Positions 38,699 to 45,117 of a stretch of 64,000 bases of DNA are shown here, one piece after another; position 1 is the first letter of the stretch; each line of letters opens with the position of its first letter. The position numbers and the translations under genes were made by a program. The DNA comes from Narcine bancroftii (lineage: Eukaryota), in assembly GCF_036971445.1 (NCBI RefSeq), contig NC_091481.1:69130001-69194000 (forward strand), read 5' to 3'. The notes beneath the pieces were generated by a model that did not search any database, was not told the DNA's origin, and saw only the letters and a program-made list of their open reading frames with translations.

Positions 38699-39481
38699 AT
38701 TGACTGATGCAAACATATCTAGTTAGAATGGCTTCCTTCTGTGTTATAGAGTCTGCATACACAAAAATGCTGGAGAATCTCAGCAGGTCATGCAGAAGGG
38801 CTCAGCCCCGAAACGTTGATTATGTATCTTTACCATAAAGAATGCTGCATGACCTGTTGAGATCCTCTTGTATAATTTTTTTTGTTCTTCAATGTGTGAA
38901 TGAGAATTTAAAGGTTCCATTATTGTCACATGATACGCCACTTAGAATGTAACACATATGAATTTAAGCTGACTAGCATACATTTTTTAAAGGAACCAAA
39001 GTGCAGAATGACAAGGGAAGCTGAAGAATGTTTAGAAGAAGCCAGCATTTATGGTTTTTAGACTGCAGGCATCTAATGGCACAATCCAGGAATTTTGCCA
39101 CTATACGGCCAGTCTAAAAAGCAATGTGCAAAGAATTTTGAGTCAATTCCTGCACAGCAATCTATCCTTCAGGACCCCTACAACTTTTTGGAGGAAGCAT
39201 GCGGTGTAAATCGTAATGGAAAAACTCGTCAGCAGTCATCCACTCCACTGCGCGACCAACCAGGTACTTGCAGTCTAAAAAGGTGGTCAGTGTGAACAAC
39301 CACAAGGGCAGTAATTATGTTAATTTTTCCCACAATTTTCCCAACATTGGGTGATGAGATAAAATCAGGCGTGAGAGGCTTGTATGGAGCAAACCAGCAT
39401 TTAATCATTGCCTGTCATATGCTAAGTTCAATGTAATATTACTTTGATGACTTTAACATAGAGTTTTCCCTTCATTCTCAG

Positions 39482-39551
39482 CCCAGACTTACCAGAGAAT
39501 GAAGCCACTTTTGCCATTACTGCTGGTGGAATTTGCGATTCAAAGGAGTGA
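39482..39551 (+). CDS. DMC1: DMC1 last coding exon (PDLPENEATFAITAGGICDSKE*)
   Basis: ttctcag| acceptor; TGA at 39549-39551. Confidence 0.97.
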
Positions 39552-40944: not shown

Positions 40945-41290
40945 TTACTCTGACACCCTGTCAAAGGTCCTATATTTCATATTAAATGGATGGCTCGAGG
41001 CCGAAGCCATTCCTCCTGAATTGAAACCTTATTATACACGGCACAATGAAATATCGATTGAAGATGGTTGATTATTATGGGGGACCAGGACAATTATTTC
41101 TTTCGAAAGGGCAGGCTGTCATGCACCACAATAATCACCCAGAGATGGTTTGAATGAAAGCTCTGGCACACGTGCATGTCTGGTGGCCTTCGATGGACAT
41201 CAATATTGAACAGATGGTCAGGAAATATTGCATTTGTCAGGAGATGCAACCTCAAGCTGAAGCTAACCCATGGAAATGGTCATCGCGAAA
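40945..41290 (+). mobile_element. Decayed Ty3/gypsy pol remnant (integrase zinc-binding region)
   Basis: LSKVLYFILNGW...PELKPYYTRHNEISIEDG*LLWGTR, then MKALARVHVWWPSMDINIEQMV...CICQ across stops and frameshifts. Confidence 0.75.
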
Positions 41291-41657
41291 CCCAAGTCTG
41301 TGTCAAACACAGACTTAATGGTTACATCTATTGTACTTACCAATTGGTGTTGGACACTGGTCAGGTAAACCCATGACGAACCTGTCTCTTAAGGCTTCAT
41401 TTAAGAAAGCACCAAACACAGGTTTCTGACAGTCTACATAATTCAGCCAAATACTCGCTTACAGATTCGCCTGTTTCTGAAATAAAATTTGTCTTTCTGC
41501 GATGACCAGTGGCTTAGGATATAGATGTTCTCCAATTACAGCACACAACTACGCATTTGTTTTTGTACTTGGTCTTTCAGGTGCCAACATTAGTTTAAAT
41601 GTCTTGCTTTCCACTTGGCTCAGAAATTTTCTGCTCAAAATCAATGTGTCAGTAATA

Positions 41658-42882
41658 CAGTGGAACCCTGTCATATCGTGATGGTTTGGGTCCAAAAGAA
41701 ATTGCATCATGAGAAAAAGCAGGGTTGCACTAATGAGGGTTCACAAAAAAAATCAGCATTTTCAAAAAAAAAATCAAAAATGCATGTACAGGTCCATTAT
41801 TGTCACATTTAGAATGTAACATACATGAAATTCCTTAACTTGTCTACTGTAAGGCAGACAACTTTGTCTAGTGCTCCTCACAGCGGAAACCTGCAGCACC
41901 TGATGTTCCTAGGCAGTCTCCCATTGAAGTATTGACCAGTTCTGTACAATACTTGTATTTGCAATTGTCTTTTTACTTCTTAAAAAAGCGATTGTGTGTT
42001 CGTTGTCTGAATGCAGCGTGTCGCTGGCGGCGAGCGAAATCCAAAATGCTTCTGAGCTGGACGATTTTTATGTGGTCCACATCCTGGGTCTCCAGCCAAC
42101 GTAAGCTAGCCTCAAGGTGCTCAATGGCTTCAGACACTTTTGGGGGTGGGGCTGGAGGCTTTTCATTATCATCCTCCCGTGGTTCACATCGATGGGCGTC
42201 ATCTTTACTAGACGGTGTGCGGTCTGGGATCATCGTGTAGCAGAGGCCTGTTTTGTCACAGTTGGGTGCTGGTTCTTTGACGTAGCCACCTTCTGCTAAG
42301 AGAGGTTTTAGTTCTGCCGGGTATTGCCTGGCGGCGGCACTGTCGGCTGAGCGAATTTCTCCAGACACTAACACTTGAGAAATCCCGTGACGGCGTTTAA
42401 ACCGGTCTAGCCATCCATTGCTAGCTTTGAACTGCGAGGTTTCTCCGTTGATCAGCTTGTCAAACATCTTGGCTTGAGCTTTGAGAATAGGCCCGGAAAT
42501 TGGAAGGCCTTCTGAGCGCGCTTGAAGGAACCACTCGTACAGGGAGTCATCGAGGCTGACGTCTTGGGCCGTCTTCATGCGTTTGGCCTTGAGTCCCGCG
42601 TCTTCCTCCACTTTCCAAAGCGATGCGCGTAGCTTTTCCTCCTGAGACTTCCAGCCACGAAGTGTTGATTCCGGTACGCCGAGGTCACGTGCAACTTGGG
42701 TCTGACTTTTATTCTTGATCGCATCAAGGGCGCGAAGCTTATCTTTCACGGAAAAAGCGTTTCGTCTTCTAACAGTGCGATCCATTTTGATAAAAATATT
42801 CAATTCAGGAAAGAGCAAAAAGAAAAGGGTCCAATGGCTCATTGAGTTAAATTCGGATTGGCGTTAAATCCGGGTTCTACTG
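41658..42882 (-). mobile_element. Internally deleted Tigger/pogo-family DNA transposon
   Basis: TA|CAGTGGAACCC (41658) ... GGGTTCTACTG|TA (42882): terminal inverted repeats matching 10/11 plus TA target duplication; encloses a transposase-derived ORF. Confidence 0.85.
41973..42785 (-). CDS. Tigger/CENP-B/JRK-like protein of about 270 aa: HTH_psq-like + HTH_Tnp_Tc5-like + start of DDE region + C-terminal helical region; DDE core deleted in frame
   Basis: Uninterrupted ORF 41973-42842 (likely start MDRTV at 42785); SQTQVARDLGVPESTLRGW; GLPISGPILKAQA; FKASNGWLDRFKRRHGI; NCDKTGLCY resembles NxDETGLF. Confidence 0.8.
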   Translation of the reverse strand: MDRTVRRRNAFSVKDKLRALDAIKNKSQTQVARDLGVPESTLRGWKSQEEKLRASLWKVEEDAGLKAKRMKTAQDVSLDDSLYEWFLQARSEGLPISGPILKAQAKMFDKLINGETSQFKASNGWLDRFKRRHGISQVLVSGEIRSADSAAARQYPAELKPLLAEGGYVKEPAPNCDKTGLCYTMIPDRTPSSKDDAHRCEPREDDNEKPPAPPPKVSEAIEHLEASLRWLETQDVDHIKIVQLRSILDFARRQRHAAFRQRTHNRFFKK

Positions 42883-42884
42883 TA

Positions 42885-43640
42885 TCATGGCCAATTTCTA
42901 TACCTCCAATACACAATAAAAATTTCCCTGTTCCTGGGCTCCAATGGTTTGGCCCATCCCCCCCCCAGGGCCCGACCTCCAATGGTTTGGCTCGTCTCCC
43001 CCCTCGCTGCGCGGGTCACGCGGTCCTCCCCACCGCCCCCTCCCAGCCTGGCCGCGCGCTGATTGGCGGAGCCACTGTGCGCTGCCGCTGACGTCACTGT
43101 TGCTGGGTGGAGTGGGTTCCGGTGGCTGGTCGGTGGAGCGAGCGCTTGACGGACGTTCTCCCTTCGTGGTTTGCCTCAGTCGGAGAATCGGCGGAAAATG
43201 AGAGGTTTTGGCGGTGACCGCGGCCGAGACCGGGGAAGGTAAAGGCGGCGAGCGGGCCGGGCGAGGCCAAGATCCAGAGGCAATGCGACGGCGCCGGGCG
43301 AGGCCCCCTGGGCGGATGGCGGCCGGCAAGCTGCTGCAAGCCGGGGGCTGGAACTATGGTTGTCCTCAACCCGCTTGGTGCGGCCCACGGTTCGGATGAA
43401 CCGGTTCATTCCGGCTGGCGCCGGTCATCGTGAGGTGGTGAAGCTGGGCCCGCCTTCCGTATTTCCCCCGCTCGGATTGGCGGGACGTGCGCCCTCTCGC
43501 ACGATGACTGGTTGAATCGGCTGTCCGTCTGATTGGTTCGATCCCTGTCAATCATCCCAACGTAACACTCCTAGTCTCATCCGGGTCCTTGCCCGAGGCT
43601 CAGTGATGTCATGCAAAGGGCGGAAGTGGGGCATCAGGTT
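42885..43640. promoter_or_regulatory. CpG-island promoter of DDX17 with bidirectional-promoter motifs
   Basis: GC/CpG-rich; CCAAT at 42891, 42941, 42979 and ATTGG at 43062; perfect CRE TGACGTCA 43089-43096; GC box near 43033; ETS-like CGGAAGTG near 43621. Confidence 0.85.
43198..43238 (+). CDS. DDX17: DDX17 coding exon 1 (MRGFGGDRGRDRG)
   Basis: ATG in a CpG island (gaaaATGa), |gtaaag donor; resembles the p72 N-terminus MRGGGFGDRDRDR. Confidence 0.9.
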
Positions 43641-43868
43641 CGAGCCCAACGCAACCAGCTCTGAGTGTGAAACATGGAGGAAGCTGTTTCATTATGCAGT
43701 TTCAGTTTATTGTCATGTAATAAAAACAACGCAATATTACACAAAATCTGTTTTCGTCTGCCTTAAAGCAGACATGTGCCATCGTCAGAAATTCAGGCCA
43801 GTGCTGCCTGAAGACTTGTTTTAATTTTCCACTGTTGTGTAAAGTAAACTAAAACCATAGATACGGAA

Positions 43869-43939
43869 TTCTGAAATAAAAGCCGATGTAGGAAGTATTC
43901 AACTTTCTGAAATAAAAGCCGATGTAGGAAGTATTCAAC
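43869..43939. repeat. 36-bp tandem duplication
   Basis: TTCTGAAATAAAAGCCGATGTAGGAAGTATTCAAC twice. Confidence 0.9.
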
Positions 43940-44960
43940 ATTCAGAATTATTGTCAGAGTCTCACCATGTACAGCCCTGAGATTCATTTTCCTATAGGCC
44001 AGGAATTGTAACTGTAAACTGCACAAGAAGAAAGAATTGTATACAAATGAAAGAAATTTATGCAAACTGCAAATACAGAAAATTAAATATTCAGTTATAA
44101 ATAATGAGCAAAGTAAGAGTTTTTAAATTAAAAAGTTTTTGGTTTTGTATAAAGGTATGAAAAAAATGCAGGCAGGTGCCTGAACAAAATGGTGGGAGGA
44201 GCAGAGGGAGTACAGGAGTACAAAGAGGTGGATGAAGGAGGGCCCTGTGAATGGAGAAGGAAAGGGGTTGAGAGCTGGAGGAAAGAAGTGAAAGTGAAAG
44301 GAGGGAGAACGGAACATAGGCTAGCAGAAACCGGAGAAGTCAATGCCATCTGGTTGGAGAGTGCTCGAACGCACAGTCCAGTGTTGCTCCTCCAATTTAC
44401 ATGTTACTTTGGTGGGATAATACGAGGCCATGGACCCACACATCTGCGCAGGAGTGGGGTGCAGAATTGTAGTAGTTGATAATTTTAAGTGAGAGGGATC
44501 TCCCAAATTGTCTCTGAATGAGTCTATTGTTTAGGAGTCTTTAGGTTGAGGGATAGCAACTATTTTTGAACCTGGAGGTAGGAATTTTGTGGCAAAGGCA
44601 TACAGAAATGCTTGAGGAACCCAGCATCCTAAGGAAGTAAAGATATATTGGCATTTCAGGTTTGTCTCCTTCTTGGTCCCAGCATTTGTGTGTACGTCTT
44701 GCTAGTCACAGTGTCTGCATGCCTTCATGTTTAACAGTAGTATTGAGGCACCTTTATCTCTTTCCTTATAGCGGGTAATAGTAATCATTGAGTTGGTCAG
44801 CATCTGTGGTGATAGAAATGTTTCAGGGAGTATTTCACCATCTATGATGTTTCCTGTTAGTGTTTAATACCGGCCGCCCATGGATTTATTAATCATTGAA
44901 GCTGTCTAGCGTATATAGAATTCTGTGTTCTTTCTTGTGATGGATATGATGTCTCTTCAG

Positions 44961-45117
44961 CAGCAATGGTCCACGGTTTGGTGGAGGCTCATCACTGGGA
45001 AAGAAGTTTGGACAACCTGGAGAGCGGCTTAGAAAGAAGAAGTGGGACTTGGACGAACTGCCAAAATTTGAGAAGAATTTCTATGCAGAGCACCCTGAAG
45101 TGGTTAGATTAAGCCCA
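44961..45117 (+). CDS. DDX17: DDX17 exon 2 (SSNGPRFGGG...KKFGQPGERLRKKKWDLDELPKFEKNFYAEHPEVVRLSP)
   Basis: tcttcag|cag tandem acceptor, |gtaggt donor; DDX5/17 signature peptide. Confidence 0.96.

Follow-up and report, generated by a model that had tools for sequence, protein, structure and literature searches.

The 1225-bp Tigger/pogo element that lies head-to-head with DDX17 (41658-42882) in the 64-kb window, by which we mean the whole stretch of DNA analysed, is probably a young, lineage-restricted domesticated DNA-binding gene that uses DDX17's bidirectional promoter, a reading to which we give a probability of about 0.65. At this locus we observe an aged insertion, a deletion junction that is single among the scored copies, an intact frame, purifying selection specific to certain domains, and RNA cover.

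The neighbouring genes on the + strand, recognised by short motifs as DMC1 (ending near 39550) and DDX17 (ATG at 43198), lie on either side of the element. The sequence-only reading had placed the element 316 bp from the DDX17 ATG in divergent orientation; the adjacency stands, and the gap is 315 bases. The element ends in a 14-nt inverted pair that is 93% complementary, which bears out the 1225-bp length, TA target-site duplication (TSD) and decayed short terminal inverted repeats (TIRs) first read there. The two marks of a Tigger/pogo origin, a TA duplication with TIRs and the pairing of CENP-B_N with HTH_Tnp_Tc5, are both present (Table 1). What had been described as a retro-tail in the 3′ part, with similar pieces nearby, turned out to be a SINE insert of ~150 bp between two TGTACA copies in the 3′ UTR, and the similar pieces lie at 38906-38965 and 43723. 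Full-length relatives of this insert resemble 5S rRNA (two of two loci tested, slightly below the Rfam gathering score), which identifies it as a 5′-truncated 5S-derived SINE; an Rfam scan of the Tigger element itself gave no match. Since the SINE has its own target duplication and its nearest genomic copies are only 77-84% identical, it provides an independent sign that the Tigger element is long resident. A 4-nt deletion has removed the splice-acceptor-like AG that precedes the family-consensus ATG. Outside the element, a short decayed frame at 41154-41318 has repeat-like depth, and we take it to resemble a Gypsy-type integrase zinc-binding region.

Table 1. Features of the Tigger element and the adjoining DDX17 promoter, in window coordinates.
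Feature	Position	Strand	Remarks
TA target-site duplication, 3′ side of Tigger element	41656..41657		
3′ terminal region and TIR	41658..41790	-	decayed, 77% to family consensus
5′-truncated 5S-derived SINE in 3′ UTR of Tigger element	41791..41942	-	TGTACA duplication on both sides
C-terminal ORF part, aa 201-270	41973..42185	-	acidic/Pro linker, predicted helical hairpin, PIP-box-like tail
Catalytic-domain start relic, aa 146-200	42186..42350	-	E178K, predicted disordered, stops at ~790-bp deletion junction
Bipartite CENP-B-type HTH DNA-binding domain, aa 1-135	42381..42785	-	
5′ UTR and 5′ TIR	42786..42882	-	ancestral splice-acceptor-like AG gone
TA target-site duplication, 5′ side of Tigger element	42883..42884		
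Shared CpG-island promoter region	42885..43197	.	CCAAT boxes on both strands, CRE palindrome at 43089, GC box at 43033
DDX17 first coding exon	43198..43238	+	spliced to 44961/44964 in RNA run X1

The minus-strand ORF runs from the ATG at 42785 to the stop at 41973 and encodes 270 aa without a stop, making it the longest open frame of the window (296 codons stop to stop). Its start codon has a strong Kozak context (A at −3, G at +4) and is preceded by two short upstream frames and a weak in-frame upstream ATG at 42842. The protein matches the Pfam models CENP-B_N (E 1e-7) and HTH_Tnp_Tc5 (E 7e-20), so that the stop-free ORF of about 270 aa with both HTH domains is as first read, and gives no match to Pfam DDE_1. 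Compared with the family consensus, the coding part has a single in-frame ~790-bp deletion of the catalytic core and no second indel, with family codon 200 joined in frame to an acidic/Pro linker and C-terminal segment at 42186/42185. Two features that had been noticed from the letters held up in this comparison, namely K in place of E in the first catalytic motif and the in-frame join to an acidic linker and C-terminal helical segment. An autonomous pogo transposase is ruled out by the removal of ~790 bp of the DDE domain and the missing DDE_1 match.

The genome holds a large old Tigger family, with 2375 first-look candidates, of which 40 were scored and the best are 81-84% identical; our genome searches score the best candidates alone, and copy counts are lower bounds. 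The element is of similar age to its paralogues (dS 0.167 vs 0.155). A 131-nt junction probe found no second copy of the deletion junction among the 40 scored of 404 candidates, and in a protein search (142 scored of 2010 candidates) no locus besides this one proved free of stops across aa 1-270. A young non-autonomous family sharing the deletion, which the sequence-only reading had named as the outcome that would speak against its proposal, is thus ruled out by the single junction among scored copies and the distance of the best paralogues. Two loci considered as further junction copies, L051 and L053, were rejected because their deletions differ. Perfect 24-nt family ends number nine in 3.3 Gb, one of which is the Tigger element itself (the pattern was written to include the locus) and seven of which are short or MITE-like, and the family looks extinct in this genome. 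Elsewhere, L007, L015, L016 and L020 form a separate group of shorter (~1 kb) deletion copies sharing family ends, L057-L063 are short MITE-like elements whose ends are common to the element's family, and L052 (G000:C9:60306400-60309600) is a different Tigger member, 47% identical to the 270-aa query, whose frame stays open for 440 codons before a frameshift interrupts it.

Selection was assessed by aligning the element against a scripted consensus of 39 paralogues, to which 21 non-duplicate paralogues were added for a total of 60 (six loci were excluded as duplicates and seven as too short). Every one of the 60 paralogues examined carries a stop or frameshift, against none in the 270-aa ORF: each of the first 39 has at least two over the same codons, with a mean of 7.5 in the 30 of them that cover more than 230 codons, and each of the 21 added has at least one. 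With synonymous rates taken from the ORF itself and the frameshift rate taken from the paralogues, the neutral probability of an intact frame at this age is 0.0013, with ~6.6 disablements expected over the element's full age and 4.2 frameshifts expected. The ORF differs from the consensus by 27 synonymous changes (15.7 expected) and 33 nonsynonymous ones, giving a whole-ORF dN/dS of 0.43 (p=7.7e-4) under a null model in which base, type of change and CpG context are preserved and stops disallowed, and with the in-genome family consensus rather than orthologues as reference; the dN/dS check proposed with the first reading therefore gave a value that is not near 1. Among the 58 paralogues with at least 40 changes the median is 0.965 and the minimum 0.54, all above the ORF; the next-lowest are L002 (G000:C9:183393142) at 0.54 and L047 (G000:C15:232340452) at 0.61, both stop-broken. 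By region, with boundaries set after the alignment had been viewed, dN/dS is 0.26 in the HTH domains (p=3.6e-4), 0.36 in the C-terminal segment (p=0.028) and 1.39 in the catalytic stub. Judged by these substitutions, the locus shows what appears to be purifying selection on the HTH domains and the predicted C-terminal hairpin and none on the catalytic stub, and the sparing of the stub argues that it was probably the short protein, once the deletion had happened, that came under constraint. Among ~2000-2400 candidate copies a single intact frame might turn up by chance, but its combination with a dN/dS this low is improbable, as arithmetic from the counts gives ~0.001-0.002 such occurrences per genome.

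The locus has evolved unlike the average copy, with CpG decay of 0.146 vs ~0.35 in paralogues and a strong AT-to-GC bias (30:8 vs 464:849). Both are what the margin of an unmethylated island should show, and the dN/dS test is conditioned on both, yet they also suit a rather improbable alternative in which the ORF is a lucky neutral relic beside an unmethylated, GC-biased CpG island, from the tail of ~2000 copies, and its RNA is promoter-upstream noise or DMC1 read-through; the size of the family and the unstranded nature of the RNA contigs point the same way. The null already accounts for base, change type, CpG context and the absence of stops, however, and synonymous transitions in the ORF run near the normal rate both at CpG sites (0.22 vs 0.33 in paralogues) and for non-CpG GC-to-AT changes (0.057 vs 0.067), whereas the nonsynonymous ones are low (0.075 and 0.006, respectively). 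The expected frameshifts, moreover, are independent of methylation. On the paralogues, the mutation-class check behaved as it should, with synonymous and nonsynonymous rates about equal, and in the ORF synonymous rates exceed nonsynonymous ones in four of six classes, which hold all 27 synonymous changes.

It is very improbable that the synonymous excess instead arose before insertion, in a divergent active master element belonging to a hidden sub-lineage. Several paralogues do have a few of the non-CpG changes, and at some residues the protein agrees with copies from hagfish or turtles; but the private non-CpG changes alone (34, found in at most 2 of 60 paralogues) still give a dN/dS of 0.46 (p=0.02), the best match to the most-changed 161-nt stretch is 87% identical (40 scored of 267), and pooled family contigs of another species (run X9) carry the other allele at these sites. 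In an active transposase lineage the reverse of the pattern found here, where the catalytic stub is the least constrained region, should be seen, and an origin before insertion would leave the absence of frameshifts unexplained.

Run X1 was identified as RNA by splice joints, with DDX17 exons 1 and 2 joined GT-AG at depths of 757 and 1222, and these joints fall on two tandem NAGNAG acceptors of exon 2, 3 nt apart, at 44958-44964. Zero-mismatch X1 contigs cover 42473-43166 (depth 254), 41812-42092 (123), 41250-41831 (57) and 41000-41279 (75), and compared with a depth of 5.4 deep in DDX17 intron 1 the island and element contigs stand 25-50 times higher, on unstranded contigs of a single run in which contig depth is a poor gauge of level. 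The first of these contigs may take in the DDX17 5′ UTR, and among the pieces displayed for X1 none lies over 42093-42472 and none bridges the deletion junction. Depth declines away from the island, which divergent transcription fits better than DMC1 read-through; a + strand DMC1 transcript could nonetheless read through the Tigger element. X1 is the one aligned out of four runs from a single study that were presumed to be RNA and that contain 68-92% of the words sampled from the ORF. Within DDX17 itself, an exact X1 contig covers the first 660 bp of intron 1 (43209-43898) at depth 215, falling to 5 thereafter; it may represent a DDX17 RNA that terminates early or retains the intron, or else an overlapping antisense transcript seen at its 5′ part.

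By both sequence and fold, the nearest solved structure to the HTH region is the CENP-B DNA-binding domain (1HLV). Residues 111-152 are identical to the family consensus and contain the last helix of the second HTH, which we take to be the recognition helix. In an AlphaFold model the HTH domains and the C-terminal helical hairpin are confident and the stub and linker disordered. A PDB sequence search with the C-terminal segment gave no match, and the hairpin has no specific structural match: all Atlas matches are below 0.9, and in the hairpin fold search the CENP-B dimer domain (1UFI) ranks 39 (E 4.9), amid numerous generic hairpins. The tail motif corresponds to the PCNA-binding PIP box, canonically Qxx[I/L/M]xxF[F/Y] (PMC5371812), which is conserved in the family and hydrophobic at position 4 in most relatives that extend to it; in the 270-aa protein position 4 is His (L264H), and this degenerate form suggests a possible release from PCNA.

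We propose that a Tigger copy of the Jerky/TIGD5-like pogo type inserted long ago, when the family was active, at a TA ~315 bp upstream of the ATG of DDX17 and pointing the opposite way, and that the DDE catalytic domain was largely lost through an in-frame deletion. Divergent, unspliced transcription across the element would start from the unmethylated CpG island of DDX17, and the strong-Kozak ATG would yield the 270-aa protein. Given that residues 111-152 are unchanged, the HTH pair would be expected to bind a CpG-containing subterminal motif of its own family without cutting, and the modelled hairpin may give self-association or partner binding; self-dimerisation is reported for pogo transposase, CAG and CENP-B proteins (PMC4231638). 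At relic ends, among them perhaps the 5′ end of the element itself next to the DDX17 promoter, the protein would not cut but would influence chromatin or transcription in the manner of CENP-B or CAG, and it may initially have been retained as a KP-type dominant-negative repressor.

The sequence-only reading had offered domestication and transposition repression side by side. Domestication is favoured by the intact frame, the dN/dS and the RNA cover, whereas repression in the present day is unlikely: no active family was found, as there is no young or intact copy among the scored matches and perfect ends are as few as given above, and today the protein would more probably serve in regulation, either at relic ends or at the element's own end by the DDX17 promoter. 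The repressor idea is thus historical at most, and may account for early selection. The Drosophila P-element derivative KP is multicopy, and the deletion copy beside DDX17 is single. Like KP (PMC7776569), the element is internally deleted and encodes a non-cutting protein, with DNA binding here predicted from its domains; KP targets a currently active family, unlike this one. An unlikely variant holds that the protein is a former KP-type dominant-negative inhibitor on which selection ceased with its family, leaving a frame that happens still to be unbroken. The dN/dS of 0.43 is intermediate, as would fit early constraint giving way to neutrality, the PIP box and stub have decayed, the family looks extinct, and the architecture suits competitive repression by the KP precedent (PMC7776569). 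Given the disablements expected over the full age of the element, however, the frame would probably not have survived a long neutral phase, and the nonsynonymous excess sits in the stub instead of being spread over the HTH domains.

As a domesticated gene, the DDX17-side element has several partial counterparts. Of 13 human Tigger-derived genes, 8 sit in bidirectional CpG-island pairs (PMC2777200), and the closest parallel there is the primate TIGD1-EIF4E2 pair, in which a housekeeping gene at a CpG island likewise faces a young Tigger insertion head-to-head, with CpG content preserved inside the element; TIGD1 has kept its DDE core and lost one TIR, whereas the DDX17-side element has lost the DDE core and kept both TIRs and the TSD. 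In domain layout it resembles Drosophila CAG/CG12346, a CENP-B-type bipartite DNA-binding domain plus C-terminal region with the DDE internally deleted (PMC4231638). CAG is described in the same paper as old, being without TIRs, with a dN/dS of 0.08, syntenic across Drosophila, with lethal alleles and PCNA-binding; the DDX17-side element appears to be an independent vertebrate event with a dN/dS of ~0.43 and a degenerate PIP box. It shares with CENPB, CENPBD1, JRK, JRKL, TIGD2-7, POGK and POGZ the CENP-B_N plus HTH_Tnp_Tc5 module, a single locus and purifying selection (PMC7386202, in the portion available). That portion says that all surveyed vertebrate pogo-derived genes retain a full DDE, whereas the 270-aa protein lacks it and is about half as long; it gives dN/dS of 0.055-0.14 for established genes among the rows seen, far below 0.43, and lists pseudogenes alone for cartilaginous fish. 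Domesticated genes are conventionally expected to have no TIRs or TSD in their flanks, and here both TIRs and the TA are present, decayed, as expected for a young domestication event, so that we do not claim formal membership. Of the six domestication criteria in PMC4231638, two describe the locus (transposase similarity and an intact, constrained frame) and one does not (TIRs and TSD remain), which makes it a strong candidate but not a proven domesticated gene.

Protein searches found no orthologue: neither word-seeded searches nor a 50%-cluster search gave a same-family protein spanning the junction, and an exact look-up of the 270-aa protein in a 15-billion collection found none. Annotated family relatives occur in hagfish (78-80% aa identity), stingray (73%) and turtles (~60%), a distribution that suggests possible horizontal spread of the family. 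In the stingray Hemitrygon akajei, the gene models XP_072905188.1 and XP_072905186.1 fuse the family HTH part to a prostatic acid phosphatase-like model. Three runs from other organisms (X9, X15 and X22) yielded paralogue-like pieces alone, which bear neither way on orthology: in X15, two short pieces diverge at 42172-42173 from the window sequence, a little short of the junction, and in X22, which likewise bears neither way, one piece stops at 42173 and DDX17 is expressed without a junction contig. X9 gave no cover of the single-copy CpG island. The literature searched contains no report of this locus.

The nearest likeness in layout comes from predicted 281-aa DDE-less proteins of two Acipenser sturgeons (RXM37435.1 and MGH0149869.1), which have an HTH pair, short linker and hairpin and are 32% identical over 282 columns, but belong to another Tigger lineage with another breakpoint and an intact PIP box; both are predicted gene models, one of them in a record that bears a flag for unverified contamination. 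Three further unrelated DDE-less pogo proteins (P0122, P0139 and P0175) also have an HTH pair and C-terminal hairpin, the set including the sturgeons spanning 247-281 aa, and these predicted proteins suggest that the layout may recur independently. We tentatively raise the possibility, which we regard as speculative, of a recurrent and unrecognised class of vertebrate ‘mini-pogo’ genes, CENP-B-type DNA-binding domains with a C-terminal hairpin from which independent in-frame deletions have removed the catalytic core, here and perhaps in sturgeons. The DDX17-side copy would then have been caught at birth, TIRs intact, and would work as a newly formed regulator of transcription or chromatin at the family's thousands of relic ends, its own at the DDX17 promoter among them; it could be a functional CENP-B analogue in a non-mammalian lineage. 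Known vertebrate pogo-derived genes are mostly old and DDE-retaining, which makes the early steps of domestication hard to observe, whereas this one locus displays together the donor family, both ends, target site, captured promoter, deletion and domain-specific selection. It makes testable the idea that domestication is seeded by bidirectional CpG islands, and also the idea that the path from transposase to transcription factor leads through truncated repressors.
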